A stretch of DNA of 64,000 nucleotides from Candidatus Latescibacterota bacterium (GCA_965204745.1 OZ242010.1:480001-544000), one strand, 5' to 3'; numbered from the stretch's first letter, positions 13,477 through 35,290 are shown. Made by a program: numbers and translations. The notes: generated by a model not told the origin, from the letters alone.

Positions 13477-13494
13477 AAGGGGGTTGGGCGGGGT

Positions 13495-13524
13495 GGGCAT
13501 CGCCCCTACACACTGCTCACCTCT
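13495..13524. repeat. Partial GTAG-type REP module
   Basis: gggcatcgcccctacacactgctc. Confidence 0.75.
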
Positions 13525-13603
13525 GACTTTCCCCTTCCTTTATTTGATATTTGGACTTATTATTTTTGTCACGGCATTTTGAACGCTTATCCGGTGCGAG
13601 AAA

Positions 13604-14741: not shown

Positions 14742-14817
14742 GCCGCCCTAGCTCAGTTGGGAGAGCACCTGATTTGTAATCAGGCGGTCAGCGGTTCGAG
14801 TCCGCTGGGCGGCTCCA
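14742..14817 (+). tRNA. tRNA-Thr (TGT)
   Basis: Cloverleaf: GCCGCCC/GGGCGGC acceptor stem, CCTGA-TT-TGT-AA-TCAGG anticodon arm, GGTTCGAGTCC, encoded CCA. Confidence 0.97.
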
Positions 14818-19587: not shown

Positions 19588-19825
19588 GCTCGGTAGCACA
19601 ACCTGAGTCTCGCGTCCCCGAATGAGATTTAGCGATTGCTTTAATTGGCGAAGACAATAGGTATTGAACGGTAAGTCACTTGCCTCGGCATTGGTGCTCG
19701 ATAATTGTTTCCCTGCAACTGACGCAGTTCAGCATGTTCAACCTATCATATTACAGGAGCACTGTCAAAGGGTTCGCGATGGTCATTTCCAAAAGCGCGG
19801 GGCAATGCTTTTGTCGTGGCGCACG

Positions 19826-20635
19826 TCAAGGTCGATTTCGCGCTTCCCACATGGGATAGTGGATGTCTGCCCGTTGCAGTTCGCGCTGAAGCCACTGGTT
19901 GAACAGGCGTTTGCGGATCTCTTTTTTGACGCGCTCGTCAAGTGTTGCCGGATAGATTTGTTGCAACAAGTACAGCGCGAACCCGCCCGAGACCTTTTCC
20001 GGGCCGAAGAGGTCGCCTGGGGACGCGGCGAAAACGCGGGCGGCAATGCCCTTTGGCAACTGCGTGCGGCGCACGCGGCCCAAAAACCCACTGCCCGGGC
20101 GCGTGGTTGCATCTTGGGAAAACCGCCGCGCCATGGCGTAAAAGTCCGCGCCATCCTCCCGAATCTGCACGTCGATCTCGTCGATTATCCCCCGATCCGC
20201 GTGAAAGATCCAACAGATTTCCGCCTCGTCAAATTCCAGCGCGTGTTGTGCAAAATAGGGATCGATCTGCCCGTCCGCGATTTTTTCCGACAGCAGGTAT
20301 TCCAGGCGGCTCACCTCGGCGTCTTCTGCCACGTCTCGCAGGGTAATGCCGCGCTGGGCGAGCCAGGCCTCGGTGTCTTCCACGCGCTCGAGGCGGTGTC
20401 GATACCGCCAGTCGTTGACTTTGCGCTGAATGTCTTCGCGCGCTGTGCCAATGCCTTCGCGCTGCGCGAGTTGGCGGATCAATTCCCCGCGTGCAAACCG
20501 ATCAAAAAAGCGCAGGTCGTCCGCAACGCCCAACTGCCGCACGATTTGGCACACGCTCAAAGAGACGCCATTGACCTCGATCAGCGTGGCATCCTCAATT
20601 TCCGATTCGACGCGTTGCATCGCCGCTCTCCTCAT
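19826..20635 (-). CDS. PpiC/parvulin-type peptidyl-prolyl isomerase (secretion/peptide-maturation foldase)
   Basis: DFYAMARRFSQD...GFLG..RR..LP..IAARVFAASPGD..GP; directly downstream of hlyD. Confidence 0.85.
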   Translation of the reverse strand: MRRAAMQRVESEIEDATLIEVNGVSLSVCQIVRQLGVADDLRFFDRFARGELIRQLAQREGIGTAREDIQRKVNDWRYRHRLERVEDTEAWLAQRGITLRDVAEDAEVSRLEYLLSEKIADGQIDPYFAQHALEFDEAEICWIFHADRGIIDEIDVQIREDGADFYAMARRFSQDATTRPGSGFLGRVRRTQLPKGIAARVFAASPGDLFGPEKVSGGFALYLLQQIYPATLDERVKKEIRKRLFNQWLQRELQRADIHYPMWEARNRP

Positions 20636-22046
20636 GGGTCGTCGCGTCGTACTTTGCGGATTCGTAAAGCTGCCGCAAGGGGCTGAGCAACATCAGCAAA
20701 ACCGATTGGCGGTCCGTCATAATCTCTGCCGTGCCCTTCATGCCAAACATCAGGGGTTTTTCGTCGCCTTTGACGCGGATGGTGTGTTCTTCCAATGCCA
20801 CGATGGCTTTGAAGATAGGCCCGACCGTTTCATCGAGAATCGCATCCGGCGCAATGTGTTTGAGCCACCCGCGCTTGATGCCGAAATCCTGAAACGCGTA
20901 CGCGTCGTATTTCAACTTGACCACCTGCCCGGGTTTGAGCAAGCCCACGTCTTTGTTCAAAACCATCAATTCCGCGACGATCGGCGCAGACGCGGGCACC
21001 AGCATCCCCAAGGGCTGTCCCTTGTTGATCACCTGCCCGACCGCGTTCACCATCACCTGCGTGACAATGCCCGATTCTTGCGCCAAAATCAGGTCCGATT
21101 CGGCATCTAACACGCGATCGACGCGCTTGCGCGCCTGCTCCAATCGCAGTTGGGCGGTCTCATAAGCGTGTTGGATCTGCGCTGTCTCGCGCTCGTGGGC
21201 GAGGCGCGCTTCCGTAATTTGACGCTTGAGGTCTTGAACCGCCATTTCGTTTTTGTAAATCTCGGACATGCGGTTCGGCAGTGCGGCCAGCGCGCTGAGG
21301 TATTGCACGCGCGCGCGATCCATGTCTGAACGGCTGATCAAGTTGCGTTCAAACAGGGTCTTTTGTTGCAAAAACGCCTGTTTGAGATGGTCGATTTCCG
21401 CTTGGCGAAAGCCGATCTGCGCTTGCAACCCGGCGTCCGGCGCGCTGTTTTGAGACGCATCGCCCACGTCGTTGCGATAATCTTTTAGGGCGTTTTGGTG
21501 CGCGGCCATAAACCGCTGCAAAACGGACAGGCGTCGTTCGAGCGCGGCGATGGTTTCCCGGTTCAATTTGGCCTTTTGCGGCAGCGCGTTTTTGAGATCG
21601 TACTCGGCTTGCTCAAACGCGATCTCGGCTTGTTCCCGCTCCCGCAATTCGCCCCAGGTCTCCCATGATTTCAGCTTGAACAACACCTGACCCGCTGCGA
21701 TGTGATCGCCTTCGGCAATGCCGATCCATTCGATTTCCCCGCCGCGCTTGGCCTGCACGGTTTTCACCTGCCCCAGCGGCACCAGCCGAAACGGCGCGGA
21801 CGCCACCACATCCACCTCGCCCAACGATGCCCACGCGAGGGCAATGCCGATAAACAGCAGGACGATGTAGAGCAATGCCCGCCCCCAAAAGGGCCGCAAC
21901 GACCCCATAAACGCACGCGCCTCTTCGGACGCGTCGTCGCGCTCAACGCGCAAAGTTCTGGCCTCGGCCTCTACCAGTGGTTCTGCCATCGCGTGCCTTT
22001 TGTGCCTTTTGTGGCTAAATTCGGCCTCTACCAGTGGTTCTGCCAT
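20595..22046 (-). CDS. HlyD-family membrane fusion protein
   Basis: Single TM, long coiled coil, NKDVGL.KPGQ.VKLKYDAY.FQDFG, GMKGTAEI. Confidence 0.93.
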   Translation of the reverse strand: MAEPLVEAEFSHKRHKRHAMAEPLVEAEARTLRVERDDASEEARAFMGSLRPFWGRALLYIVLLFIGIALAWASLGEVDVVASAPFRLVPLGQVKTVQAKRGGEIEWIGIAEGDHIAAGQVLFKLKSWETWGELREREQAEIAFEQAEYDLKNALPQKAKLNRETIAALERRLSVLQRFMAAHQNALKDYRNDVGDASQNSAPDAGLQAQIGFRQAEIDHLKQAFLQQKTLFERNLISRSDMDRARVQYLSALAALPNRMSEIYKNEMAVQDLKRQITEARLAHERETAQIQHAYETAQLRLEQARKRVDRVLDAESDLILAQESGIVTQVMVNAVGQVINKGQPLGMLVPASAPIVAELMVLNKDVGLLKPGQVVKLKYDAYAFQDFGIKRGWLKHIAPDAILDETVGPIFKAIVALEEHTIRVKGDEKPLMFGMKGTAEIMTDRQSVLLMLLSPLRQLYESAKYDATTHEESGDATRRIGN

Positions 22047-22048
22047 CG
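21964..22048. repeat. 28-bp direct repeat flanking a 29-bp (CCTTTTGTG)n module inside the hlyD 5' end
   Basis: tcggcctctaccagtggttctgccatcg at 21964-21991 and 22021-22048; 57-bp period, in frame. Confidence 0.95.
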
Positions 22049-22074
22049 TGCGTCCCCCTTCAAAGCGTTGCCCG

Positions 22075-25000
22075 TCAAACCCCTTGCAACTGTTGCCCGC
22101 ACATGTGCGCGTACAACCCCTGTTGCACCATCAACTCGCCGTGCGTGCCCATCTCCACGAGATGGCCCTTGTCCAGCACCACAATGGCATCGGCGTCTCG
22201 CACGGTGCTCAAGCGGTGGGCGATGATCAAGGCGGTGCGGTCTTCCAAGAGCAGATCCAAATTCGCCCGAATCGCCTGTTCCGAATCCGTGTCCAGCGCG
22301 TTGGTGGCTTCGTCAAAAATCAAAATTTTCGGATCGCGGTACAATGCCCGCGCTATCGCGATCCGCTGCCGTTGCCCGCCGGACAACCCGACGCCCTGTT
22401 CGCCCACTTTTGTCTCGTAGCCCAAGGGCATATCGGTCACAAAGTCTTGCACGCAGGCCAGTTTTGCAACTTCCAGGATGCGTTCCATGTCCGCGTCTTC
22501 CCGCCCAACGGCGATGTTTTCCGCGATGCTGCCGCTGAACAAAAACGGCTCTTGCATGACCATGCCCACCTGTTGCCGCAACCAATGGGGGTCGAAGTCT
22601 CGCGCGTCCATCCCGTCGAGCAACACGCGCCCGTCTGAGGGATCGAACAGGCGCGGCACGAGTTTGACCAACGTGGTTTTGCCCGCGCCGCTACGTCCCA
22701 CGATAGCGACTTTTTGCCCCGGTTCGACCGCGAGGTCGATGTTGTTCAACACGTAGGGTTCGTCAGACCCGACGCCGTACCGAAAAAATACCGAGTCGAA
22801 AACCAAGCGGCCTCGCACCTGCTTCAAGCGCAAGCCGTGCCCTTGTTGCCGCGCGTCTTCCATCTGCGTGTCGTACACGTCATTGAGCCTGTCCAAGGCG
22901 ACGCGCGCTTCTTGCACTTGCGGCCAGATGCTGATCAACCCCATGATGGGGCCCATCACATTGCCGATGAGGGCATTAAACGCCATCAACTGCCCCACGG
23001 ACAAATTGCCCTCGATGACCAATGACGCGCCATACCACAAAATCACCGTGTTGCTCAACAAGTTGATCAGGCCCCCGCCCGCGCCGAACAGCATCTGCAT
23101 TTTTAGGCGTTGAAATCCGATCTGAATTTCCCGCGTGAACTTGCCCTCCCAATGCCACCGGGTCGCGCGCTCGACCGCCTCGGCTTTGACCACGTCGATG
23201 CCGCGCAGGGAATCGATCAAGACCGAGGATTGTTCGGCGCGCGCCAAAAATGCGCGTTGGCTAAAGGATTTCAAAATGGGCGTGTAGATCAGGGTGAGGC
23301 CCACGGACAGGGGCACAAAAATCAGCATGACGAGCGTCAACTCGGCGTTGTAGTAAAACATCAATCCGAGATAGACGAATAACATCACAAAGTCCAAAAC
23401 CGCGGAAACGGTCGTGCCGGTCAACAGGCGTTGGATCGTGGCGTTTTCCTTGAATCGCGTGGTCAAATCGCCGGTGCGCCGAAGGGCGAAAAACCGCATG
23501 GACAGGGCCAATAAATGGCGGTAAAAACGCGACAACATCGACAGGCTCAAGCGCGCACTCACATAGCCGATCAAGTACGTCCGCAGGGTTGTCGTGCCCA
23601 TTTGAAACAGCGCGACGACGACCATGCCCACCAACATCAAGTTCAACAAGTCCTCGTCGTGATGGACCAACACTTGATCCACAATGGTCTGCATAAAAAT
23701 AGGCGACGCCAGCCCAAACAAACTGAGCACCAGCGACGCCAACAAGACTTCGATTAAAATGCCGGTATGGGGTTTGACCAATGGGAAGAACCGCTTGAAG
23801 GACGAGCGGGACGGCTCGTTTTGTGCCACGCGATCCGTGTATTCCAACAACAGCGCGGCGTTTGTCCAGCCCTTTTCAAATTCCGCACGCGACAATTTGC
23901 GAATGCCCACGCCCGGGTCCGCGATTTTCACCTCGTTTTTCCCGATCTGATACAAGACCACAAAGTGATTGCCTTCCCAGTGGAGGATGGCCGGGAGGTC
24001 TGTTTGCATGAGGGCTTCGTACCCGGTGCGAACCCCGTGCGTGACAAAGCCCAGGGTTTCAGCGGCCTCGGCCAACGCGGCCATGGACGTGCCATACCGC
24101 GAGACATTGGACATGTCGCGCAATCGGTTCAAGCCGATGGGCATTTTGTAGTACTTGCAGATCATGCCCAAACACGCGGCCCCGCAATCGGATTGATCGT
24201 GTTGCTTCAAAAATGGAAAGCGAAGCGCGGTGGGCGCGGTGGGTTGGCGTTCCTCTGTTCTGATGGCGACCACATTGGCGCGCGCGTCTCGTTTGTCAAC
24301 GCTTGGCTCGGCTCGCGCGCTCGGCCCATCGCCGAACGTCGCGCTTTGGGTTTGTCGCGGCAGAGGCGATGCCCCTGTCTCGCGTTCCGAGCTCGCTAGC
24401 CGCCCCATCTGCAAGGCCGCGCCGAGTGCGGGCATCCCGTCGTTGAGTTTGTCTAAATCGCTTTTATCGATAGAAAAGAGCACGCAATCGCTTTGGCAAC
24501 GGATCGCGGGTGGTCGCTCGCTCGGCAAATTCTCATCGCCAAAAAAATCCCCGGCGCGCAATATCGCGGTGGCGCCCTTTGCCGATGCGATCTCGACCTG
24601 ACCGCGGGCGATCAAGTAAAATCGCTCGTTTGGCTCCGCGACCAATTCGCCCTTTGCCACCTCTTCGCGCTTTAAGCGGGCGAACAGCTCCCGCAATACC
24701 TCAGCCGAGACATTCCCTTTCAAAAATCGCGTGAAATTCCGATACGCGATCTGCGCGACCTGATCCTCGAGGTACGCTTTTAATCCCGCTTCTTTTTTGA
24801 GCACCTTGAAGAACCGATCCTTTGGCACGCGCAAGAGGTCCGAGTCCTCAACCGCCCGCACGGTCGCCCGATGCCCCTGCCCGGTCAATAACGCGCCTTC
24901 GCCAAAGTGGTCGCCCGCGTATAAATAGCCCACGGTTGCAGAACCGCCCTCCGCGTCTCGCTTGATGACCCGCAACCGCCCAGCTTGCACCACGTAAAAG

Positions 25001-25125
25001 GCGTCCCCGGCTTGCCCCTGCTCAAAGATGACACTGCCAAATGGCGCGGGCCGAACCGCGTTTTCCGCAAAGAAGCGCGATAGGTTTCTAAATGCGACCT
25101 CGGGTGCTGTTTGTGTGGTGTTCAT
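22075..25125 (-). CDS. Peptidase-containing ABC transporter (cNMP-binding domains + C39 peptidase + TMD + NBD)
   Basis: GDHFGEGALL cNMP motif; QSDCGAACL/HFVV/IADP C39 triad; [25 protein letters not shown]. Confidence 0.95.
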   Translation of the reverse strand: MNTTQTAPEVAFRNLSRFFAENAVRPAPFGSVIFEQGQAGDAFYVVQAGRLRVIKRDAEGGSATVGYLYAGDHFGEGALLTGQGHRATVRAVEDSDLLRVPKDRFFKVLKKEAGLKAYLEDQVAQIAYRNFTRFLKGNVSAEVLRELFARLKREEVAKGELVAEPNERFYLIARGQVEIASAKGATAILRAGDFFGDENLPSERPPAIRCQSDCVLFSIDKSDLDKLNDGMPALGAALQMGRLASSERETGASPLPRQTQSATFGDGPSARAEPSVDKRDARANVVAIRTEERQPTAPTALRFPFLKQHDQSDCGAACLGMICKYYKMPIGLNRLRDMSNVSRYGTSMAALAEAAETLGFVTHGVRTGYEALMQTDLPAILHWEGNHFVVLYQIGKNEVKIADPGVGIRKLSRAEFEKGWTNAALLLEYTDRVAQNEPSRSSFKRFFPLVKPHTGILIEVLLASLVLSLFGLASPIFMQTIVDQVLVHHDEDLLNLMLVGMVVVALFQMGTTTLRTYLIGYVSARLSLSMLSRFYRHLLALSMRFFALRRTGDLTTRFKENATIQRLLTGTTVSAVLDFVMLFVYLGLMFYYNAELTLVMLIFVPLSVGLTLIYTPILKSFSQRAFLARAEQSSVLIDSLRGIDVVKAEAVERATRWHWEGKFTREIQIGFQRLKMQMLFGAGGGLINLLSNTVILWYGASLVIEGNLSVGQLMAFNALIGNVMGPIMGLISIWPQVQEARVALDRLNDVYDTQMEDARQQGHGLRLKQVRGRLVFDSVFFRYGVGSDEPYVLNNIDLAVEPGQKVAIVGRSGAGKTTLVKLVPRLFDPSDGRVLLDGMDARDFDPHWLRQQVGMVMQEPFLFSGSIAENIAVGREDADMERILEVAKLACVQDFVTDMPLGYETKVGEQGVGLSGGQRQRIAIARALYRDPKILIFDEATNALDTDSEQAIRANLDLLLEDRTALIIAHRLSTVRDADAIVVLDKGHLVEMGTHGELMVQQGLYAHMCGQQLQGV

Positions 25126-25146
25126 TTCCGTCTCCTCAAATTGGTA

Positions 25147-26223
25147 TTACATCCCTTCTAAAACCGCAATGCCCCTTTCGAGCACCGGATCGCCCATAGC
25201 GGAGGAATCGGAAAAGCTGACGGCGATATCGGGGGGAACACCGATGCCTTCGTAGCTTATCCTATCCGCGGAAACGAATTTTGACACCGTGAGTTGATAC
25301 ACCCACCCATTGGGCAGCTGACCTTGCTTGATACTTCCAAGGGCACCGGCAGTGGAACTGCCGATGACCGTGACATGGGGGAATTGTCGCAGAGCCAAAA
25401 CAAAATGTTCCGCCGCACTCGCGGTATTTTTTCCGACGAGCAAGACGAGGGGGTTGGTGTATTGCCGCGCTCCTGACGGCCCGATTTGCAGTTCAAAAAG
25501 GGGCGCAGAGTCGGATCGATTGACGCGATATTGGTATTGTGCATAGCCATAGACGTGTGTTTTATCGACAAAACGCGCCATGACAGATCGCGCGTTTCCC
25601 GTCACACCACCCGAGTTCTGTCTCAGATCGATGATGATGCCATCAGTATGGCTCAACTGCGCTAAGACAGCGTCGATATCCCCTCCCCAGTCTTTATCTT
25701 TCACCGATCCGGTTGAAAATCCAGGGATAGAGATATACCCAATGCGATCTCGCATCGCGCCGTACTGAAGCCCTCCCTGCGTGTGTATATCGTCGATATA
25801 ATTTCTGACGCGGTCAAAATCGAACGACTCATCCTCCCGATTGCCAAACTCAATTGTGAACGTCGTATCTCTTTCAAACCCGCTCGGATCAAAAGTTAAA
25901 GGCTCATCCCGACGCCCCGATACAAAACGACCAAATGGCGTGACGAGACCGACATGCCGGTCGTTGAGGTATTCTAACATCAGGGCACAGATTGCAAAAA
26001 GTTCCAGTTGGGTGGTTTGCGCCGTGACGAAAGGACGCTGAACCCTGTAAAGCGCGTTCCAATCGACATTCTTGACCTCAAACAATGCGTAAAAGTCATT
26101 AAATTCTCGCCAGAAAACTTCGAAGTTGTGTTCGGGTGACGAGTCGAGATCACCACCTACAATTGACTTTCCGCAGGAAAAATGAAAACCACAGACGACG
26201 ACGATAAATAGCAGACGTAACAT
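25147..26223 (-). CDS. S41-family peptidase, probable lipoprotein
   Basis: Signal ending HFSC; IIDLRQNSGG, TASAAEHF, EGIGVPPD. Confidence 0.9.
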   Translation of the reverse strand: MLRLLFIVVVCGFHFSCGKSIVGGDLDSSPEHNFEVFWREFNDFYALFEVKNVDWNALYRVQRPFVTAQTTQLELFAICALMLEYLNDRHVGLVTPFGRFVSGRRDEPLTFDPSGFERDTTFTIEFGNREDESFDFDRVRNYIDDIHTQGGLQYGAMRDRIGYISIPGFSTGSVKDKDWGGDIDAVLAQLSHTDGIIIDLRQNSGGVTGNARSVMARFVDKTHVYGYAQYQYRVNRSDSAPLFELQIGPSGARQYTNPLVLLVGKNTASAAEHFVLALRQFPHVTVIGSSTAGALGSIKQGQLPNGWVYQLTVSKFVSADRISYEGIGVPPDIAVSFSDSSAMGDPVLERGIAVLEGM

Positions 26224-26224
26224 G

Positions 26225-27013
26225 TTATTTTACCTTGAGAGCGAAGCCCATCAGCAGATTATGCGTGAACATTGCGGCCGTGCGTTCATATCTTCTCGCA
26301 CGCTGGAAATCCATGCGATAGACCGCGTAAAACGCGATAGATGAGGACAGCCGACTGGCGTAGTGAACGCCGATATTGAAATGCAGAAAGCGGTTCCAGA
26401 AGGCCAGATCACCAGCCAGTAAATTCGCAAAACCTTCCCGGCCGGATACAATACCAGATGCGTGTGGCAGATAATACGATACGAGGGTACTGCCCAGGTA
26501 TGCTCTGAGATGGTGTCGCATGTTAAAATGATAGTCACCCAAAATTGCAAGGCGCAGGCTGAAATCCATATCCCCAATGAGCTGGGCATGTACTGGCGGA
26601 TGGATGTATTCTTTAACGTAAAGTCCCACTCCCATGCCCCCCATAATGCCCAACCTCATTTTGTCGTAGGCCGCCAAATAGCGCCCGTATAATTCTTCAA
26701 CCTGAAAATACACGATCTTGACACTTGTCTCGGAAGCAGAGAGGTTGCCACGCCCAAATGCGATAAACTCGGAGCGGTAGCTTTTATTGCCTTGTTTTAG
26801 AGAGAGCCAAGCAACGGATGGCGTCTGGCCTTCGTACCGCAGGTAGGATCCCAATTCATCTTTTAAGTAAAATTGCGACAGCCCCGCCATGATCCCATAC
26901 CATTGCTCGCTCGCTTTCTCCTTTTTGGTGGCCTCATTCTCTTTGGGCATTTCTTCACCCAAGGCATCCATTCCCCCGAGCACCAAACACAAAACGACCA
27001 GTATTTTCATCAT
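26225..27013 (-). CDS. Exported hypothetical protein, possible outer-membrane beta-barrel
   Basis: Signal peptide and alternating aromatic/hydrophobic strands; abuts the S41 gene. Confidence 0.6.
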   Translation of the reverse strand: MMKILVVLCLVLGGMDALGEEMPKENEATKKEKASEQWYGIMAGLSQFYLKDELGSYLRYEGQTPSVAWLSLKQGNKSYRSEFIAFGRGNLSASETSVKIVYFQVEELYGRYLAAYDKMRLGIMGGMGVGLYVKEYIHPPVHAQLIGDMDFSLRLAILGDYHFNMRHHLRAYLGSTLVSYYLPHASGIVSGREGFANLLAGDLAFWNRFLHFNIGVHYASRLSSSIAFYAVYRMDFQRARRYERTAAMFTHNLLMGFALKVK

Positions 27014-27051
27014 TTTTCACCTGTCAGATATCTTGGTTCATGTATGACGCC

Positions 27052-27927
27052 TCATTTCGCGGTGCTGAACGCCGGAAGCAAAAATACCTGTTGCTCTCGT
27101 CGCTGTGGTATCCACGCCCGCCATTCTCGGTCTAATGCCTCGAGATCCTGTGGAATCGCGCGTTTGATGATTTCTAAGTTGTTGTTGTGAAGCAACTTAA
27201 ACCTGATCATATTCCATATACTCGGCGTAGCGCCAGCGGCTCGATTCATCTCCCAGATTATATTCTTGAGTATGCCTTGTCCCTTTTCTGAGGACATGAG
27301 AAAATAGACGAATAACCATCCGAAGGTCCGCATTTTAGCTTCTTGTTTTTTGTACTGGGATTTGGACAGTGAAAAGAAATCAGCCAATGACATCAGTTGC
27401 CCTTCTTTCAGCCACTCTTGGCATGCGCGGTTGCGATCAGGGGCAAAGCCGATCACCGCTTTATCATCATAGACCTCCATCCTTTCGAAATACTCTGCAA
27501 TGCCTTCTTGCAACCATTTGGGGTGCCACAAATGCTCATGCAAAATCGCGTGACTCGCTTCGTGATACACCCTCCTGATGAAATACACCCTCCCGACGGA
27601 ACAACACTCACAATGATTCAAGATCGCGACCTCTTTTTTTTTTACGGAATAATACGCCGGAGCAGAAGTCGAACCACCTCGATATTCGGTATAATCGCTA
27701 TGGCTACCAAATATCTGAAACTTGATCTGAAAACTTTTAGATACCTCGAGATCAAAGACCTTTTTATAGATCCCGATCATCATTTTAATCCCGCGTTCTA
27801 TGGCTTCCCTGTCCGTATCGTCAACTTCGCAGTTGTGCAGATTCAACTGGCAGATATCCTGCGCTGTATCCTGCGCCATCGCCAACTGCGCGCTCAATAG
27901 GATGAGAGACAGAAGTGCAAATTTCAT
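27052..27927 (-). CDS. Secreted gluzincin-like metallopeptidase (DUF1570/peptidase MA-like)
   Basis: Signal peptide; YHEASHAIL...PKWLQEGIAEYFE. Confidence 0.8.
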   Translation of the reverse strand: MKFALLSLILLSAQLAMAQDTAQDICQLNLHNCEVDDTDREAIERGIKMMIGIYKKVFDLEVSKSFQIKFQIFGSHSDYTEYRGGSTSAPAYYSVKKKEVAILNHCECCSVGRVYFIRRVYHEASHAILHEHLWHPKWLQEGIAEYFERMEVYDDKAVIGFAPDRNRACQEWLKEGQLMSLADFFSLSKSQYKKQEAKMRTFGWLFVYFLMSSEKGQGILKNIIWEMNRAAGATPSIWNMIRFKLLHNNNLEIIKRAIPQDLEALDREWRAWIPQRREQQVFLLPAFSTAK

Positions 27928-28218
27928 CGCGATCTCCTACGTTAAAATAAAAAAAACGTCAGTGATTTAACAAAGGTCAATGCCATCGCTGTTGCGAAAG
28001 GCAGGATGACCGCACGACCCAAGGCGTTATCGTCGAGAACCTCCGTTTTTGCCCTTATTAATATTTTATGGGATAGGCGCCGATGCCATCAAACGCTCCT
28101 ACCCCATAATCAAAAATGACCTTCGAATCGACTTACTGTTTGGCAACAAGTTACGATACCTGACTTGCGCTCTGTAAACTCACCGCAGTAGCGGTTGCTT
28201 ACTTACCTCGGTTTTGAA

Positions 28219-28382
28219 CTACATTGACCAAGGGTGAACATCTACAACTACATCTGGCAGTGGTGGCAAGTCGATACCAAATTCCTCACTGATTAGATCA
28301 GCGAGTATATCATAGATATCATGCCAGACAACGCATCCACTGGGGCCGATTGCCCAGGGGTTGATACGATTCGCTTCGTCAT
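28219..28382 (-). pseudogene. Frameshifted copy of precursor peptide C (precursor B) with an internal leader deletion
   Basis: Starts MTKRIVSTPGQSAPV after a GGAGGTG RBS; a shifted frame reads GCVVWHDIYDILADLISEEFGIDLPPLPDVVVDVHPWSM*. Confidence 0.85.
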
Positions 28383-28448
28383 TCTCTCACCTCCTTTCTC
28401 ACTTTCACTGAGAACTCACAGCAACAGCGGCTTCTGGCAGACCTTACA

Positions 28449-28694
28449 CTACATTGGCCAAGGCCACGGGTTAAAGGGCCAAGGCCACGGGTTAAAGACG
28501 TCCTCCCAATCTTCCAAAATATCTTCCAGTGGCGAGTCAAATTCCTCGCTGGTATCATCATCTGGAAACGGGTAACATCCACCCGCCCCAGCGACCTGAG
28601 CGATTTGGTGCTCGGTCAGATCAGTCGTTTCAATCGGCAGATTGACCGTAGCTGTGACCGAGTGCTCAGGGTCCGATACGATTCGCCTTGTCAT
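28449..28694 (-). CDS. Double-glycine-type precursor peptide A (81 aa)
   Basis: AAGGAGGTG RBS; 37-aa leader ending TTDLTEHQIAQVAGA aligns with precursor C; core GGCYPFPDDD...FNPWPWPFNPWPWPM. Confidence 0.85.
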   Translation of the reverse strand: MTRRIVSDPEHSVTATVNLPIETTDLTEHQIAQVAGAGGCYPFPDDDTSEEFDSPLEDILEDWEDVFNPWPWPFNPWPWPM

Positions 28695-28803
28695 TTCTCT
28701 CACCTCCTTTCTTTAGGTTAAAAATGGTTTGAACTGATGGCGGTAGGCAATCTATCCTTTTACAGAACCCCTTGGAGTTGACCGCCCCTTCTACTCTTGT
28801 TTA

Positions 28804-29328
28804 TCACCTCTGCTGAATCAAAACGCCATTTTCCGACAGCAGGGACAAAACCTTTTCTGGATTTCTCGACGCGAGGACCACCTGTTTCACTTTCTTTTTT
28901 TGCTTGAGCTTGTAGCGGGTCAGGTAGTCTTCGTTCAATCGCAACCTGATCAACATTGCCCCTGGAAGCCAGCGGCCTTCTCCCAACACAGGCGGCCCTG
29001 CGGCATTGAGGGCTAAACGCATCGCAGGACTTTTGCGATCAACTATGAACTTCTCCGCATACGCGATTGTGCTCAATAAAATCTGTTCCTTGCCGGTAAA
29101 GTGATAGCCAAACGCGATTGTCGTATCGTCTATCTGAATTGTGAAACGCCAATACATCGAGAACACCACGCAAATCAGCACAAGCGCAGTAACCATAACC
29201 AAATGGGTGACAAATTGCATGCCAATCAAATAAACAAAGGCCGTTGCCATCGCTATCATCGCTACTGCGAAAGACAGGATGACCGCCCAGGGCGTTATCG
29301 TTTCGTAATAGACAATATTTCGGTTCAT
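28804..29328 (-). CDS. Hypothetical membrane protein (2 TM + soluble domain), possible immunity factor
   Basis: Two hydrophobic helices; overlaps the stop of the CAAX protease gene. Confidence 0.7.
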   Translation of the reverse strand: MNRNIVYYETITPWAVILSFAVAMIAMATAFVYLIGMQFVTHLVMVTALVLICVVFSMYWRFTIQIDDTTIAFGYHFTGKEQILLSTIAYAEKFIVDRKSPAMRLALNAAGPPVLGEGRWLPGAMLIRLRLNEDYLTRYKLKQKKKVKQVVLASRNPEKVLSLLSENGVLIQQR

Positions 29329-30136
29329 TTGGGATGTCCAATGAAGTCATGAACTGTATCCTTACGCGCTTCTACTTCTTTCTGCTTCGCCACCCGGTAA
29401 AACCACCACAGCCCAAGCGTAGCCAATATTACGCCACATAGATTGAGGACTACAACATTTTCCCAAAAATTTGGTACTTCAAAAAATAAAAATGTTACTT
29501 CCAAAAAATTGTTCAGCATGTGCCCCAAAATTGCAGGCCACAAAGATCCCGTTTGGATGACCCACCAGGCAAAGACAATTCCAAATATAAAGGCGACTGG
29601 AAATTGCCATGGATTCAGATGCATTAGACCAAACAGAATGGCCGACCAAACAATCGCCCGATTTTGTGTGTAGTGTGCCGATAGACCTCTCAAGATAATG
29701 CCTCTACAAAGTACCTCTTCAACAAAAGGTCCTATCAGGACGAAAAAAAAAATAAGGATAACAGATCAGATATCTTATTGGAGTCAACTAAGGCATCATA
29801 GGCACGCTGAAATTTTTCAGGTAATGGAATCACATGTTCCACCATTGCGGCTATTTGAAAATTAATGAGCCATAGCCCAAAGATAGATAAACCAACGGAA
29901 AACCATATACGCCAATCCTGGTCTATGTTTAGCAATATATCTTTCCAAGTTCGATTCGTCCGATGCGAAACATAGCACAAAATCAAAATGAGCCCTGTCA
30001 ACATCAAAAGGCCCCTCAGGTAATTATTCTTCATTAACGACTTGTCAATATTACTCGTCAGTATCCCCAAACCTATTGTAATAAGAAGCCATAATATCAG
30101 CAACCAAATTGACTGCTTCAAGTTTGGATACGTCAT
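29325..30136 (-). pseudogene. CPBP/Abi (CAAX protease) intramembrane metalloprotease, frameshifted at a T10 run
   Basis: 5' ORF 29735-30136; the shifted frame carries PFVEEVLCRG, FGLMH and GHMLNN; A10 at 29743-29752 on the plus strand. Confidence 0.85.
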
Positions 30137-30185
30137 TTTAATCTCCCTAACATTTACTGTGATGCGTTTTTTGTTTTATTTTGCT

Positions 30186-30230
30186 TTTTTGGGATAGGAG
30201 CGAACATTCTAAAATGCCCCTATCCCAAAA
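30186..30230 (-). terminator. Hairpin after precursor D; a similar copy lies at ~28066-28110
   Basis: ttttgggataggagc...gcccctatcccaaaa. Confidence 0.55.
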
Positions 30231-30258
30231 TCAAAAGGTAGCTTATTACTGCTTACTC

Positions 30259-30513
30259 CTAATCGTCGCAGCAACAGCAACAGCAACAACTCGGTTCTTC
30301 TTCTTCTTCTAGGACCTCTGAAACAAATTCATAAACCTCGTACGCGATCCACAAGAGAAGTCCGATCCTCCCTTTTGGCTTCGGCTTCTTCCCACCATAC
30401 GTTTCTGCCATGTGGCGACTTTCGAGCATTTCCTCTTGCGGTTGCAACGGATTGCAGGCGACAAACACTTGATCTGTATCTGTCGTCATTCGGTTTGCCA
30501 ATGTTTGAGTCAT
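30259..30513 (-). CDS. Double-glycine-type precursor peptide D with a hepta-cysteine tail (84 aa)
   Basis: GGAGG RBS; leader ends EMLESRHMAETYGG; core KKPKPKGRIGLLLWIAYEVYEFVSEVLEEEEEPSCCCCCCCDD. Confidence 0.8.
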   Translation of the reverse strand: MTQTLANRMTTDTDQVFVACNPLQPQEEMLESRHMAETYGGKKPKPKGRIGLLLWIAYEVYEFVSEVLEEEEEPSCCCCCCCDD

Positions 30514-30729
30514 GGTATCCTCCAAAAAAGTAAATGAATGGAAACTTACAGCAAGAAAATTGTTTGCCCCTGAATACCCTCTTCGTGAGGGCCTTATTCA
30601 GGGATGAGTTGTGAAATGTCAGGTATGGCCCCAACATCTAAGAAATGTGAGAATTGTGCAGAATAGCCAACACGTCTTCCCACCGCGAACTCACCGCAGT
30701 AGCGGTTTCTGATTGACCTCGGTTTTGAA

Positions 30730-30954
30730 CTACATTGACCAAGGGTGAACATCTACAACTACATCTGGCAGTGGTGGCAAGTCGATACCAAATTCCTCAC
30801 TGATTAGATCAGCGAGTCTATCATAGAGATAAGGCCAGACACATCCCCCAGAGACCAGAGCGGTTTGATGCGCGTTCAGGTCAGTCGTTTTCATCGGCAG
30901 GTTGATCGCAACTGGGGCCGATTGCCCAGGGGTTGATACGATTCGTCTCGTCAT
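30730..30954 (-). CDS. Double-glycine-type precursor peptide C (74 aa)
   Basis: AAGGAGGTG RBS; leader ends TTDLNAHQTALVSGG; core CVWPYLYDRLADLISEEFGIDLPPLPDVVVDVHPWSM. Confidence 0.85.
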   Translation of the reverse strand: MTRRIVSTPGQSAPVAINLPMKTTDLNAHQTALVSGGCVWPYLYDRLADLISEEFGIDLPPLPDVVVDVHPWSM

Positions 30955-31010
30955 ATTTATCACCTCCTTTCTTTTGCAACTCAGCGCGGGTAGCGTCCCT
31001 TGTGCGTTGA

Positions 31011-32414
31011 TCAGGGGGCCATGAGCATCTCGCTGAGGTGGCGGATTTTGCGAAGCGTTTTGTGGGCTGTGGCTTTCGTATCGCACAGGCCCATCATGAT
31101 GGCTTCGACTTCGTTTGGATGCAGGTATTGCAACAAGTGGAGGCCCAAGCCTTCGAGCAGGGCCATGTCTTGTCCCAAAAATGGGATGCGCGGCAATGGG
31201 CCTTGCTTGCTGCCCAGATGGTTAAAGCCCTTGGCCACGCTTTTCAGCTTGCTGGCCGAGTCGCAGCTTTGGGCAAAGCTGACGGTAATTGGAATGGGGC
31301 ATGCGGGGGCGTCTCGTTTGACCCGCAGATTTTCAAACAGGGCGATGAGTTGCTTTGCCGTGCGATCCCATGAAAACGCGGTTGCGCGTTGACGCGCCTT
31401 CTCGCCTAGTGCCACGCGCTCGGTCTTGATCTTCAACAGATCGCGCACCGCATCCGAAATCGCTTCGGGGGCGATGTACCCCGTCATATTCAGGGGCTCG
31501 TCTTCAAATCGCTCGATCTCGATCAACCGCCCGCAATCCCCGAGCAACTCGGGCGCGCCCGCAAAATTGGTCGCCACGACCGGCAACCCACACGCCATGC
31601 CCTCCAGCACGGTTGAGGGACACGATTCATAGGAATACACGGACAGGGCGCACAGCACATCGAGCATGTTGTAATACAGCGGCATCTGCGGATAGGGTTG
31701 CGCGCCGAGGAAGACCACATTGGGGGGATGTGTCACAGACGCGAACTGCTTGCCGATTACCGCGAACAACACATTGGGATTCAGATCTGCCATCCGCAAA
31801 AACGGATACGCGCCCTTGCCCGGTTCAAACCGCCCGCAAAAGCCCACCACGGGCATTTCCAAAAAGCGTTGATCGCCCGTCTTATCCGCGATCTCTTTTC
31901 GCGCTTGCAACTTGTCTGTCGGCGCGAACACCTCGGCATCGATCCCATTGGTTATGGGGTGCAAATACGACGGGTCATACACCAATTCGCCCAGTTCTTC
32001 GGCGACATAAGCCGACTTGGGAGACAGCGCGTCCCAAGGCCGCAACAGGGAATAACAATTTAGAACTTTGTCCACGAAATCGCGGTTGCGTCCAAACGAA
32101 CACGACAGCCGAATCACGATGGGCGCGGGACACACATGCCGGAAAAACGCGAGATCATCTGCTTTGGGTTCAAACATCGCGACACCGTCAAAATTCTGCC
32201 GCGCAAACCATTGCCGAGCCGACTCAATCGTCTCGAATGCCTGGCGGATCCCATGCAAATTCGGGCCGTAATCCATGGCCTCAGACGCTGGCACATACAC
32301 CTCGCAACAGCGCGACAACGCCTCGATGTGGTTGTATCCCGAAAGGGACGCGCCACTGTTTGATTGCACGACTTTCTCTGGGTCGTGATACGGATGGGGG
32401 ACGTAGATCTTCAT
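31011..32414 (-). CDS. GT4-family glycosyltransferase with a C-terminal extension
   Basis: GFCGRFEPGKG, ESCPSTVLEGMACGLPVVAT (EX7E), FSWDRTA. Confidence 0.9.
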   Translation of the reverse strand: MKIYVPHPYHDPEKVVQSNSGASLSGYNHIEALSRCCEVYVPASEAMDYGPNLHGIRQAFETIESARQWFARQNFDGVAMFEPKADDLAFFRHVCPAPIVIRLSCSFGRNRDFVDKVLNCYSLLRPWDALSPKSAYVAEELGELVYDPSYLHPITNGIDAEVFAPTDKLQARKEIADKTGDQRFLEMPVVGFCGRFEPGKGAYPFLRMADLNPNVLFAVIGKQFASVTHPPNVVFLGAQPYPQMPLYYNMLDVLCALSVYSYESCPSTVLEGMACGLPVVATNFAGAPELLGDCGRLIEIERFEDEPLNMTGYIAPEAISDAVRDLLKIKTERVALGEKARQRATAFSWDRTAKQLIALFENLRVKRDAPACPIPITVSFAQSCDSASKLKSVAKGFNHLGSKQGPLPRIPFLGQDMALLEGLGLHLLQYLHPNEVEAIMMGLCDTKATAHKTLRKIRHLSEMLMAP

Positions 32415-32449
32415 TGTGAACCTCAGGGGAGTAATGGGGGATCAAAGTG

Positions 32450-34960
32450 TCAGTTGCGGATCGCCGATTCCATAAATATTCGCGTTTGCGCCGCGCCATC
32501 GAGGGCGAGCGGGTGGTTGGGCACCGTGCGGTTGAGCGCGTCTCGAATGGCGGTTGCCATCCCGGTTGCAGACAGGTGATCTGGGTGGATCACCTGCGCG
32601 AGGCCCAAATCCATCAACCGCCGGGCGCGAAATTCCTGATCGTCCATCGCAATGCTCGGCACGAAAATGGCCGGGGGTTGCGTCTCGAGCACGTTCATAC
32701 ACGTATTGTAGCCCGCGCGGCTGATCGACAAATCCGCATGGTTCATCCAAGGCAAAAAGTGGGACGTGAAGCGTTCCAAGCGAAACGGCCCGTCCGCGCA
32801 CGAGTCGCGCAGGGCGTCAAAATGCGCGTCTTCGATAAACGCGCCAGCAAAAATCACCATCTCGCGGCCGTCGAGCGCGCCTTCTTTGTCCAACCGTTTC
32901 CACGCTTCAATGCACGGCGCCGCGAGCGCAATGCCCTCGGCTCCGCCGCCCGCGCTGACCAAAACGTACCGGTCAGGGGCGCGCTCGGGCCGCGAATCGC
33001 CTTCTAGCTTTTCGGAAACGAATCCCGTATAGACCACGGGAATGCCGATGTCCTCTACCCATGGAAAGTGATCTTCCAAGCGCGACAACTGCGGGTCGCC
33101 GTGGACCAACACCGCGTCAAAATACAGATTCAAGATCGGCACGACCTCTTCGTAATAACGCCGATTAAAAGACAGGTGCTCGTGATGGATTCCGCCAAAG
33201 GGCACGGAGTAAAACCGCACGGCATCGCCATCGCGGCGCGGCGCAAACTCGGTGGCCGGCTGCAACCCATCGCCCTTTGCCCGCGTGGGAATATCGCGCA
33301 GGGAACACACCACTTGCGCGCTCGGATCGAGCTGGTTGCACTTGGCGATGGTATTGAGAATTTCGCTTTTGAGGGACCAGCGGCTAAAGGGGAAGAACTC
33401 GACGCACAACACGTCTGGGCGAATGCGTTCCATCGCCTCAAAAAGCCCGATCTGCCGCTCGTACATCGCGGCCTGCAAATCCCCTCGGCCATCCGCCGGC
33501 TCGAGGCCGTGCGCGCCTGCACGGAGCGCGCGCAAGGGAATGCGCGCAATGCGTTCATCGAGGTCCACACCAGGAACCGGGCGCCCGCCGTCGATGAAAT
33601 ACACATCGCAGGTTTTGACCAGTTCATCGACGATTTGCCGGTTGCGGAAGTGATGCCCCACGCCGATGAGGTGTTGGCTGTAAAACGCGATGCGTTTGCG
33701 CGGCGGTTCGACAGGCGCGGTGGATTTTTGCGGCGGCCGCGCCGAAAGCGCGGTTTCGTAGATCCCGCGGTAGCGCGCCACGACGCGCGTCCAGGCGCGC
33801 TCTGCGTGAACCCATTGGCGCGCCTGTTGCCCCAGGCGCGCTCGCAGTGCGGGTTGTGCGATGAGTTCCGCGCAGGTCCGCGTGAGACTTTTGACATCGT
33901 CGGCCACAAAAACGCGCCCGGTTTCGCCATCTGCCACGCCTTCTTTGAGTGCGCCCACGTCGCTGACAATAACGGCTTTTTGCATCGCCATGGCTTCGTA
34001 GGGCTTCATCGGCGCGACCAGTTCGGTCACGCGACTGCGCGTGCGCGGAATGACAAACACATCGATCAATGTGTAATACGCCGCGACTTCGGCGTGGGGG
34101 ATTTGTCCGGTAAAGATCGCGGCGTCTTGGAGGCCGCACGCCTGGGCTTCGCGCTGCAAGTTCGGCAAGTCCCTGCCGCCGCCCACGATCAGCACTTTGA
34201 GGTTGGGGTGTCGCCCCTTGAGTCGTTCGCATGAGCGCAACAGGAGATGCAAGCCTTCGAGGGAGCGCACGAGGCCCACATAGCCGAGGACGACATCGGT
34301 CGGTTCGATGCCCAAGCGCGCGCCGAGGTCATGCGCGCGGGGTTGCGGCGCGGCGAACTCGGCGACGCCGTTGGGCACCACGCCGATTTTGTGTTCGTCA
34401 ATGCCCTCGCGGACACATTCGGCTTTGAGGACTTCGGACAATGTCACCACCGCGTCGGCGCGTTGCATGGCTTGGACGTGCTGCGCGTGTTGCGCCTGAT
34501 ACGCTTCTGAATCGGGCGACAGCATGCCTTGCGCGACGCCGCTGTCGTGCCACAAGCCCCGCACTTCGTACACGACGGGCAGGCCGTAGTGATGGCCCAT
34601 GTCGATGGCGATTTGCGCGTTTCGGCCCGGCGACGCCGCGTGCAACAGGTCGGGTTTTTCCGTTTCGATGGCCCGCGCAACGCGCTTGCAAAATTGACGC
34701 GCCTGCCCCTCACCATAGATTTGGGGAATCGCGGGTTCGCCCAGTCGCTGTGCCATCCGCGCCATGTGTTCTTCGGTGGTATTTCGCAAGTAGGGCACGC
34801 CGTCGATATAGTCATGCCCAGCTGCGGGCGCGCCCCATCGGGTGAGCACGACCGGGTCAAAGCCAAGTGCTTTTTGCGCGTTGACGATGTACTGACTCCG
34901 CAGACTGTAGCCGCTTTGGCGGTGTGGCAACGAAATATCCAAGATGTGTAGTATTTTCAT
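32450..34960 (-). CDS. Two-domain glycosyltransferase fusion (GT4 + GT1/GT28-like)
   Basis: N-terminal KILHILDISLP..SGY, YEVRGLW, PMKPYEAMAM; C-terminal YSQHLIGVGH, VSAGGG, SRAGYNT, DQEFRA. Confidence 0.9.
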   Translation of the reverse strand: MKILHILDISLPHRQSGYSLRSQYIVNAQKALGFDPVVLTRWGAPAAGHDYIDGVPYLRNTTEEHMARMAQRLGEPAIPQIYGEGQARQFCKRVARAIETEKPDLLHAASPGRNAQIAIDMGHHYGLPVVYEVRGLWHDSGVAQGMLSPDSEAYQAQHAQHVQAMQRADAVVTLSEVLKAECVREGIDEHKIGVVPNGVAEFAAPQPRAHDLGARLGIEPTDVVLGYVGLVRSLEGLHLLLRSCERLKGRHPNLKVLIVGGGRDLPNLQREAQACGLQDAAIFTGQIPHAEVAAYYTLIDVFVIPRTRSRVTELVAPMKPYEAMAMQKAVIVSDVGALKEGVADGETGRVFVADDVKSLTRTCAELIAQPALRARLGQQARQWVHAERAWTRVVARYRGIYETALSARPPQKSTAPVEPPRKRIAFYSQHLIGVGHHFRNRQIVDELVKTCDVYFIDGGRPVPGVDLDERIARIPLRALRAGAHGLEPADGRGDLQAAMYERQIGLFEAMERIRPDVLCVEFFPFSRWSLKSEILNTIAKCNQLDPSAQVVCSLRDIPTRAKGDGLQPATEFAPRRDGDAVRFYSVPFGGIHHEHLSFNRRYYEEVVPILNLYFDAVLVHGDPQLSRLEDHFPWVEDIGIPVVYTGFVSEKLEGDSRPERAPDRYVLVSAGGGAEGIALAAPCIEAWKRLDKEGALDGREMVIFAGAFIEDAHFDALRDSCADGPFRLERFTSHFLPWMNHADLSISRAGYNTCMNVLETQPPAIFVPSIAMDDQEFRARRLMDLGLAQVIHPDHLSATGMATAIRDALNRTVPNHPLALDGAAQTRIFMESAIRN

Positions 34961-35038
34961 CGCGCTATCTCTGCGTTGACCTGCGTTATCGCTGCGTTCA
35001 CTGCGTCGGGAAGTTTCTGTGCTTGCGCGCAATAGACT

Positions 35039-35054
35039 TGCAATTGCCATGCCA
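35039..35054 (-). promoter_or_regulatory. Sigma54 (-24/-12) promoter
   Basis: Minus strand TGGCATG-GCAA-TTGCA versus consensus TGGCACG-N4-TTGC, ~80 nt upstream of the GT fusion ATG. Confidence 0.8.
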
Positions 35055-35290
35055 CTTTTGCACAACCGCAAAAAAAAACGCCTCAGAATGTTCTAAGGCG
35101 CGAGAAAACAAGGAGATAGGTGCGATACCCGCAACCACACGCTCGGCGCGTTGCACAACCGTACCGATCACTTTTTTCACCCCCGGCTATGGTGCTAACT
35201 CGTGAACGCGCTGTATCCGTCCGTAACACCGTGTAAAATCAATGGGTTGCGCGTGTGTGCAATTCGTTCTATCGCAATGCCCAAAAATGA

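Follow-up and report, generated by a model that had tools for sequence, protein, structure and literature searches.

A gene cluster on the minus strand of a 64,000-nucleotide stretch of a Candidatus Latescibacterota bacterium genome (GCA_965204745.1 OZ242010.1:480001-544000), hereafter called the window, is best explained as one representative of a conserved and mobile peptide-production unit that a sponge-associated lineage of Latescibacterota carries in multiple copies. The cluster runs from 35054 to 19826; coordinates refer to the whole window unless a contig or locus is named. About 30 cassettes share the same conserved core: a sigma54-type site, a gene for a GT1/28-like glycosyltransferase (GT), a gene for a 467-amino-acid GT4 enzyme (GT467), double-glycine precursor genes of two leader families, and genes for a peptidase-containing ABC exporter, an HlyD-type adaptor and a PpiC-like protein. 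The tight coupling of two GT-B enzymes to double-glycine precursors appears to be new. The exporter-HlyD-rotamase trio is already known from the cyanobacterial bacteriocin clusters described in PMC3140520.

On balance, we favor by a small degree the reading that both GT-B enzymes attach sugars to the peptides while these still bear their leaders, and that cleavage and secretion by the exporter come afterwards. A sigma54-dependent promoter would drive two cytoplasmic GT-B enzymes, the GT1/28-like enzyme and GT467, with an extra fused GT4 domain in this copy. Their genes are followed by those of precursors with double-glycine leaders, which fall into two related families. The GTs would add sugars to the precursor cores with the leader still attached. 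A C39 ABC exporter gated by cyclic nucleotide monophosphates (cNMP) would cut behind Gly-Gly and export the product with HlyD, the PpiC-like protein acting as accessory factor or chaperone. CPBP proteases and small membrane proteins encoded in the variable middle region would serve as immunity-like factors. Gene content, synteny, domain identities, the contrast between conserved leaders and variable cores, and turnover between strains were observed; we infer the peptides as glycosyl acceptors, the acceptor residue, the order of these steps and the activity of the products, be it antagonism or signalling.

Distribution and synteny of the cassette

Orthologues of GT467 (E ≤1e-60) were searched in 168 species genomes of the phylum representing 49 genera. 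They were found at 36 places in 24 of the 168 genomes, with up to four per genome, and belonged to three of the 49 genera: all 20 other genomes of the window's genus contained an orthologue, as did the single genome of a second genus and both genomes of a third genus from a different family. The other 46 genera sampled yielded none. GT467 and its 45 close protein clusters share 47-100% identity, and the next generic GT4 proteins show about 25-34%; at the sequence level, GT467 is thus a compact and distinctive family.

The genomic neighborhood was compared for 27 GT467 loci from the GTDB species-genome collection. The exporter gene lies downstream in 25 of them; the exceptions are L036, which contains GT467 alone, and L053, where the contig ends. 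A GT1/28-like gene is located directly 5' of GT467 in 25 of the 27 loci, as a full fusion with an N-terminal GT4 half (14 loci), as a separate gene of about 415-440 codons (9), as a remnant (1) or cut by the contig start (1). The same gene order was observed in a divergent subfamily, where in all five loci GT467 is immediately followed by a precursor of the family-2 type; identities amount to 51-54% for the GT1-like protein, 51-68% for GT467 and 64-65% for the exporter. Sixteen loci around relatives of the fusion GT (GT873) were also inspected: 14 contained an orthologue with at least 52% identity, and the exporter was present in 13 of these 14, the remaining one being a 5.6-kb contig cut by its end. 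Flanking genes differ between loci, which indicates that the cassette moves as a unit.

Homologues of the GTs therefore occur together with double-glycine peptides and an exporter in 25 of 27 loci and in the five divergent ones, rather than in polysaccharide loci devoid of both, the setting named as adverse in the original prediction. We consider it very improbable that the GT genes are mere neighbors that terminate a polysaccharide locus next door and are functionally unconnected to the peptide and exporter genes. Gene order is generally kept within a genus, the N-terminal GT4 half of the fusion is closest to the PEP-CTERM/XrtA exopolysaccharide GT family TIGR04063 (337 bits, below the cut-off of 442), and paralogous fusions with 45-46% identity occur in two loci (L028, L029) that contain neither GT467 nor an exporter. 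The GT1/28-like and GT467 genes, however, travel with the exporter through varied flanks, in several copies, into a second family and in the divergent subfamily, and the terminator-like hairpins and sigma54-type site set them apart from the upstream ABC genes and not from the precursors. Furthermore, no flippase, polymerase, priming transferase or sugar-nucleotide gene was matched among the cluster open reading frames (ORFs) with Pfam and NCBIfam models. The assignment of the cluster to an adjacent polysaccharide locus was rejected because the GTs travel with the exporter and no other polysaccharide genes are present among these ORFs.

The glycosyltransferases

The first ORF of the cluster (32450-35071) encodes 873 amino acids and shows matches to Glycos_transf_1 (4e-32), Glyco_transf_4 (4e-16) and, at the C-terminus, Glyco_tran_28_C (7e-10). 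Homologues align from about residue 33-38; therefore, the likely true start is the ATG at 34960. The conserved part of the fusion is the C-terminal GT1/28-like domain. Since this part stands as a separate gene in nine loci, the GT4 half is regarded as accessory. With 40.6 bits against a Glyco_tran_28_C cut-off of 22, the domain belongs to the GT1/GT28-like enzymes; its profile retrieved YjiC, MurG and OleD from the PDB, and the family alignment revealed an invariant motif G16-V-G-H-H-F-R-N. The family is large, as 2377 of 8000 scored candidates matched at E ≤1e-5.

GT467 scored 68 bits with Glycos_transf_1 (cut-off 26.4), which places it among the retaining GT4 enzymes. Residues K200, E263 and E271 are conserved, the latter two forming the motif E263-x7-E271; E-x7-E is the signature of GT4. 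An AlphaFold2 (AF2) model computed from a 56-row alignment reached a mean predicted local distance difference test (pLDDT) value of 93.6 and superseded an earlier model from 18 near-identical rows (pLDDT 50.3). Fold searches covered residues 1-369, which adopt a GT-B fold in the model, closest to retaining GT4 enzymes: Foldseek identified MshA (E 7e-21), and VIA gave Z-scores of 33.6 for 6kih and 30.8 for BshA. All three GT domains of the cluster are thus of the GT-B type and not of the GT2 type used by glycocins, as had been predicted, and a GT2 family was not matched in any cluster ORF. Both the GT1/28-like domain and GT467 look catalytically intact.

GT467 carries a C-terminal extension of about 100 amino acids, in which residues 377-465 are modeled as three strands followed by three helices. 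Generic GT4 enzymes do not have this extension; it is restricted to GT467, its close relatives and the GT4 proteins with a fused CteB-type domain described below. Residues 359-467 did not match the PqqD or RiPP recognition element (RRE; RiPP, a peptide that is made by ribosomes and modified after translation) families, and a look-up of residues 368-467 in the ESM Atlas gave no usable match. When the GT1-like domain, GT467 and precursor C were modeled as a complex, the scores obtained were 0.02 and 0.00, with a mark of 0.32, values which speak neither for nor against binding.

Two groups of known GTs resemble the cassette enzymes. TIGR04157 (glyco_rSAM_CFB) describes GT4-type GT-B enzymes which, going by the model name, are linked to a radical-SAM peptide system; in Bacteroidales, that system works on peptides with Gly-Gly leaders. 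GT467 scored 21.8 bits and the fusion 48.3 bits. Both values are far below the cut-off of 400, so that neither belongs to this family, and the cassette, unlike that system, has no radical SAM enzyme. The protein O-glycosyltransferases GtfA, SdgB and Gtf3 share the GT-B/GT4 fold with GT467 (Z-scores 22.6, 22.8 and 21.3). Their acceptors, however, are large Ser/Thr-rich adhesins and not leader peptides, and their sequences are unrelated to GT467 beyond the fold.

Relatives of GT467 with a fused CteB-type domain

A profile search of 1.84 billion representative proteins returned 83 proteins at E ≤1e-30. The profile was meant for the C-terminal extension and was in effect a full-length GT467 profile because full-length rows carried most of the weight. 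About 34 of these 83 best proteins are 539-580 amino acids long and cover the whole profile including the extension, with about 100 additional N-terminal residues. A profile of this N-terminal domain matched residues 6-91 of CteB (PDB 5WGG) with E 1.7e-14; the N-terminal domain of CteB is leader-binding. Maturase models (ScfB-related, SCIFF and QhpD) also aligned to the domain with their initial 70-90 positions, and one relative, P0046, matched NF040492 (6e-10) and TIGR03974 (1.5e-6). GT467 itself lacks this domain.

Metagenomes were scanned for fused relatives with an 8-row alignment. In four of four long metagenomic loci the fused GTs form tandem pairs and adjoin ORFs of about 90 codons, the products of which are conserved at the N-terminus, contain a hydrophobic stretch and end in variable, Cys-rich sequence. 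The pairs (L067:10001-13733, L072:9959-16231, L079:9836-21240 and L084:9989-14032) encode proteins of about 540-630 amino acids. Genes for an A24-type peptidase and beta-propellers are located nearby; the latter are of Kelch, PD40 and BNR type, and methyltransferase genes were also observed. The fused proteins share with GT467 the GT4 core, the C-terminal extension and the adjoining small precursor-like ORFs; they differ from the cassette by their N-terminal domain and by the A24-type peptidase and beta-propeller in place of a peptidase-exporter. Possibly, these loci represent a hitherto undescribed system of peptide modification in its own right. Genome mining with RRE-Finder has flagged fusions of RREs to glycosyltransferases (PMC7470986), and the fusions named in PMC12710340 are to PF00535, a GT2 family.

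A wider proposal would be that the cassette yields a novel type of glycosylated ribosomal peptide, in which the GT-B pair decorates double-glycine peptides at the first core residue (Cys, Tyr or Ser) or in Ser/Thr-rich cores before cleavage by the cyclic-nucleotide-gated exporter, and that GT467 and its relatives with the CteB-type domain form a large, unexplored superfamily of leader-guided peptide GT4 enzymes in uncultured phyla. We regard this combination as plausible, with a chance somewhat short of even.

Precursor peptides

Precursor C begins 56 nucleotides 3' of GT467 and has its own ribosome binding site. It belongs to leader family 1, the members of which start with M-T-R-R-I-V-S, contain an L-P-I motif and end with S-G-G. 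An alignment of 19 peptides showed eight invariant columns in the leader (M1, R4, P9, L19, P20, L26 and G36-G37) followed by an acidic, highly variable core with a Trp-rich end. The cores hold at most one Cys. The first core residue is Cys in 16 of the 19 peptides, Tyr in two and Ser in one; residues of these three kinds are possible glycosyl acceptors.

Precursor D represents leader family 2, which is characterized by an N-R-V-T-T motif, a conserved F-x-S-C-T-x-L-P and a Gly-Gly or Asp-Gly end. Cores of this family are Gly/Ala-rich, acidic or Cys-tailed, and in the divergent subfamily they are Ser/Thr/Gly-rich. The tail of precursor D (30259-30300) consists of seven consecutive Cys residues and Asp-Asp, and the same or a nearly identical tail was observed in homologues from genome G018. 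Family-2 leaders are encoded in most related cassettes, including those of the other taxonomic family and of the divergent subfamily, and minimal cassettes comprise one family-1 and one family-2 peptide. The spacing of the motifs suggests that both leader families are related. Neither the precursors nor their leaders matched Pfam or NCBIfam models.

The original prediction had listed several double-glycine precursors. Precursors C, D and A are indeed present, and pseudo-precursor B is an internally deleted copy of C: its first 15 codons match C, and its 3' part matches the core of C in another frame. A hidden Markov model (HMM) of the family-1 leader found only C, A and pseudo-precursor B in the window's genome. 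An orphan precursor of the family-2 type is encoded outside the window (G000:C1:994429-994791, minus strand). Its leader terminates in Gly-Gly, and its core comprises about 80 amino acids; no cassette genes were evident within about 6 kb of the gene.

Peptides as candidate glycosyl acceptors

Several observations weigh against a glycosylation of these peptides. Neither cassette GT has a recognizable leader-binding domain. By sequence and by fold, GT467 comes closest to GT4 enzymes that act on small molecules (MshA, BshA, sucrose-phosphate synthase), with Z-scores of 28-34, and protein O-glycosyltransferases rank lower at about 21-23. Family-2 cores have no conserved acceptor position, and the peptides are strongly acidic, unlike most bacteriocins. 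Loci of the fused GT4 relatives contain no peptidase-exporter, and they speak for a peptide-directed activity by analogy only. The locus counts are not independent because most loci come from one genus, and synteny within a genus is by itself weak evidence. Finally, the cassette of genome G009 (L023) lacks GT467, and a lone GT467 (L036) lies about 35 kb away, the sole separation seen.

The most serious alternative, although an unlikely one in our view, is that the peptides leave the cell without modification and constitute a class-II-like two-peptide bacteriocin or signal system with CPBP immunity, and that the GTs are a functional part of the cassette with another acceptor, such as an envelope lipid or glycan of the producer, for self-protection. 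Such a role would agree with the missing leader-binding domains, with the kinship of GT467 to small-molecule and lipid GT4 enzymes and with that of the GT1/28-like domain to MurG and UGT-type enzymes. It would also agree with a paralogous exporter-HlyD-PpiC trio in the same genome that has no GT at all, and with pairs of family-1 and family-2 peptides accompanied by CPBP genes, which resemble two-peptide bacteriocin operons. Furthermore, the cyanobacterial trio clusters are described without GTs, and the word 'glycosyltransferase' is absent from the main text of PMC3140520. The nearest relatives of GT467, however, carry a CteB-type N-terminal domain and adjoin precursor-like ORFs. The GT genes are first in the operon with a precursor within 56 nucleotides, and neither GT has a predicted membrane segment or, among the matches obtained, a partner gene for a lipid carrier. 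The restriction of the first core position to Cys, Tyr and Ser and the Ser/Thr/Gly-rich cores of the divergent subfamily likewise argue for glycosylated peptides.

A predicted sigma54-type promoter

The best sigma54-type site in the cluster, TGGCAT-N5-TTGCA, has its 5' end at 35054 and differs by one mismatch from TGGCAC-N5-TTGCW. Sites with no more than one mismatch occur only twice in 64 kb, both strands included. Terminator-like hairpins at 35318-35291 and 35101-35078, just upstream of the site, close the upstream ABC genes. The rpoN gene is located within the window 4.4 kb further upstream (39454-40938); a gene for an enhancer-binding activator of sigma54 was not identified.

A script detected a sigma54-type site (≤1 mismatch to TGGCAY-N5-TTGCW) within 500 bp 5' of the first GT gene in 15 of 31 loci, including those of the other taxonomic family. 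A 16th site was found by eye at position 7350 of L031; the script had missed it because the GT gene of this locus is frameshifted. Since the loci are related, the count of 15 in 31 is no statistical test. The recurrence of the site 5' of the first GT agrees with the suggestion that the cluster may be sigma54-driven.

Export genes and local additions

The exporter consists of two N-terminal cNMP-binding domains followed by C39, ABC membrane and ABC ATPase domains, and it scored 527 bits with TIGR01193, above the cut-off. Cys, His and Asp motifs are visible in its translation, which we take to be those of the C39 peptidase; the exporter would thus possess the intact triad attributed to it earlier. 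The HlyD-type adaptor scored 204.4 bits with TIGR01843, just below the cut-off of 208.65. The PpiC-like protein matched TIGR04500 over model positions 86-336 with 96.2 bits (93.7 in the genome search), well under the cut-off of 180, and no signal peptide was evident in its translation. TIGR04500 is listed among genes tied to graspetide loci in PMC8939145.

In cyanobacteria, bacteriocin clusters belonging to groups I, II and VI are defined by an export module for double-glycine peptides that consists of a C39 ABC transporter of the long form, the HlyD protein and the rotamase 'SurA' (Wang, Fewer, Sivonen 2011, PMC3140520). The cassette contains the same exporter-HlyD-rotamase module; it differs from these clusters in phylum and precursors, and its PpiC-like protein falls under the TIGR04500 cut-off. 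In the original prediction, three GT-B domains and a prolyl isomerase had been regarded as the tailoring enzymes. The GT-B domains may act as such, whereas membership of the PpiC-like protein in the trio known from PMC3140520 argues against a novel tailoring role for it.

A second exporter-HlyD-PpiC-like trio is encoded in the same genome outside the window (L116:3385-11167; G000:C1:4810385-4818167), with identities of 48%, 50% and 40% to the proteins of the cluster. Two genes for M16-type peptidases and one for a 200-amino-acid Cys-rich membrane protein precede it. Its exporter is interrupted (678 and 160 amino acids), and the layout resembles the cyanobacterial 'group II'.

The S41 peptidase, the 262-amino-acid protein and the HExxH protein had also been counted as parts of the cluster and are not conserved: besides the window, the genes for the first two were found in 1 of 27 loci, that of the closest relative, and the HExxH gene in 2 of 27. 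The 262-amino-acid protein, called an OM protein in the original prediction, matched no family and can bear that label only tentatively. In genome G002 (L063), the genes for the 262-amino-acid and S41 proteins directly follow MacAB-like genes, which lie 5' of the cassette in the window; therefore, both are considered local backbone genes interrupted by the cassette. The MacAB-like genes comprise Yip1-domain, membrane fusion protein, permease and ABC genes (window 35336-39133, L063:12231-17973). This arrangement suggests that the cassette was inserted into, or is split around, a MacAB-like backbone.

Immunity-like genes and strain variation

CPBP/Abi genes act in immunity. A CPBP gene is present in 12 of the 27 GT467 loci, and intact copies in relatives encode 285-307 amino acids. 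In the window it is split into ORFs 29735-30136 and 29325-29693 by a frameshift at a run of ten T (29743-29752). Contigs of sequencing runs X1 and X4, which originate from two studies, span this position gap-free and unchanged; therefore, a homopolymer sequencing error was rejected, with the reservation that X1 may be the source sample. Genome G018 has more than one copy of a unit composed of precursors C and D together with CPBP, an arrangement which resembles two-peptide bacteriocin and immunity units.

Homologues of the 174-amino-acid membrane protein occur in 6 of 27 related loci. Membrane proteins of 150-200 amino acids with H-E-x-x-H in a hydrophobic context are encoded in L015 (~10100-10550, 13000-13600) and L027 (~11800-12330), and small membrane proteins of about 90-105 amino acids also adjoin the CPBP genes of several cassettes. 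The H-E-x-x-H proteins and the small proteins are candidates for additional immunity or processing factors.

Near-identical DNA was found in runs labeled sponge metagenome, none of the runs listed being from RNA, and contigs of four sequencing runs were aligned to the cluster for strain comparison. A contig of run X6 shows a joint from 27028 to 27860 that deletes the HExxH gene, and in the same run the segment 28171-30419 with precursor A, CPBP and precursor D is replaced by 284 other letters. A joint from 30696 to 30844, which changes precursor C in its 3' part, was present in each of the four runs. The precursor/immunity segment, with a G+C content of 0.46-0.51 as compared to 0.56-0.60, turns over between strains, and the GT and export genes stay. 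A strain-level replacement of this segment is expected for an antagonism locus.

The peptides, modified or not, may instead serve signalling or host interaction in the sponge, with cyclic-nucleotide-gated export; we consider this improbable. CPBP genes repeat together with precursor pairs in relatives and the precursor segment is hypervariable between strains, both typical of toxin-immunity turnover. A signalling role would nevertheless fit the strongly acidic cores, the two cNMP-binding domains of the exporter, the sigma54-type control and the presence of the lineage in sponge metagenome runs, as well as the CPBP gene, which is a true pseudogene in this strain with the remaining cassette intact. 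This alternative is about what the product does and would not conflict with glycosylation; the choice between antagonism and signalling is for the most part a matter of its own.

Gene content of the cluster

ORF calls and family scans placed every gene of the original prediction on the minus strand at the coordinates given there (Table 1), which bore out a co-directional run. Families of LanM/LanBC, YcaO, radical SAM and P450 were not matched among the scanned ORFs with Pfam and NCBIfam, as had been stated before. Rfam and tRNA scans of the window gave a single match, a tRNA-Thr at 14742-14817 outside the cluster. Directly 3' of the PpiC-like gene, a low-G+C stretch encodes an 801-amino-acid DNA methyltransferase (N6_N4_Mtase, 17194-19599); a gene with 84% identity is found in the same position at one other cassette (L044).

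Table 1. Predicted features of the cluster, in order of transcription; aa, amino acids.
Feature	Coordinates	Strand	Basis or remarks
Sigma54-type -24/-12 promoter element (predicted)	35039..35054	-	about 80 bp 5' of likely GT start
Fusion glycosyltransferase	32450..34960	-	Pfam and NCBIfam matches; GT4 + GT1/28-like GT-B
Fusion, GT4 domain	~33737-34957		
Fusion, GT1/28-like domain	~32462-33700		
GT467, 467-aa GT4 glycosyltransferase	31011..32414	-	Pfam Glycos_transf_1 7.6e-19
Precursor C, leader family 1	30730..30954	-	family alignment
Precursor D, leader family 2	30259..30513	-	core with seven-Cys-Asp-Asp end
CPBP/CAAX intramembrane protease gene, frameshifted	29325..30136	-	Rce1-like 9e-15 on 3' ORF
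174-aa membrane protein	28804..29328	-	no confident family match
Precursor A, leader family 1	28449..28694	-	acidic core, Pro/Trp-rich end
Pseudo-precursor B, deletion derivative of C	~28220..28382	-	leader HMM E 1.6e-4
Secreted HExxH protein, accessory	27052..27927	-	weak Peptidase_M9 E 0.007, DUF1570 E 0.03
262-aa protein, signal-peptide-like start, local backbone gene	26225..27013	-	no family match
S41 C-terminal processing peptidase, local backbone gene	25147..26223	-	Peptidase_S41 1.5e-30
1016-aa peptidase-containing ABC exporter	22075..25125	-	cNMP_binding x2, Peptidase_C39 3e-39, ABC_membrane, ABC_tran
HlyD-type periplasmic adaptor	20595..22046	-	TIGR01843 3e-60; HlyD_3
PpiC-type rotamase-like protein of export trio	19826..20635	-	Rotamase 2.5e-11

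Discussion

Glycocins of the sublancin, glycocin F and pallidocin type are the known peptides closest in concept to the products proposed here. Glycosylation is their main modification, S-linked to Cys or O-linked. They share with the cassette double-glycine-type leaders and a C39 ABC exporter, and the conserved Gly-Gly and C39 motifs in the translations indicate that the cassette has both. Glycocins are modified by SunS-type GT2 enzymes with a GT-A fold, and to our knowledge all characterized glycocin glycosyltransferases are GT2; the cassette, in contrast, encodes three GT-B domains (GT4 and GT1/28-like). Glycocins contain two nested disulfides in a paired-Cys helix-hairpin, a pattern that does not occur in family 1 because the cores hold no more than one Cys. 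A gene for a thiol-disulfide oxidoreductase is not part of the cassette, the host is of the Gram-negative type with HlyD, and the leaders match no known leader family. Since GT2 and a paired-Cys core are both missing, the cassette is not a member of the glycocin class, although it may function in a similar way.

Two-peptide class IIb bacteriocin operons likewise share features with the cassette, namely two co-transcribed double-glycine peptides, a CAAX/CPBP gene and a peptidase exporter. The class IIb peptides are cationic, whereas those of the cassette are acidic; in addition, GT genes head the operon, and the CPBP gene is optional and broken in the window. The designation as a new class of modified peptides in the original prediction is stronger than the evidence, and we prefer to describe the cassette as a variant of glycosylated double-glycine peptide systems. 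No published description of it was found among open-access papers and preprints, and in a genome-resolved analysis of Latescibacterota from sponges the clusters listed are solely of the generic RiPP-like and RRE kinds (PMC12993501).

If the peptides are glycosylated as proposed, a leader-dependent GT-B pair would widen the enzymology of peptide glycosylation and offer tools for peptide glyco-engineering. The link to GT4 proteins with a fused CteB-type domain would then point to a much larger family that is seemingly unnamed by current genome-mining rules. The cassette would also give the Latescibacterota, a candidate phylum of which no member is in culture, a first pathway resembling those of natural products, and the occurrence of up to four copies per genome together with the turnover between strains suggests an ecological importance in sponges.

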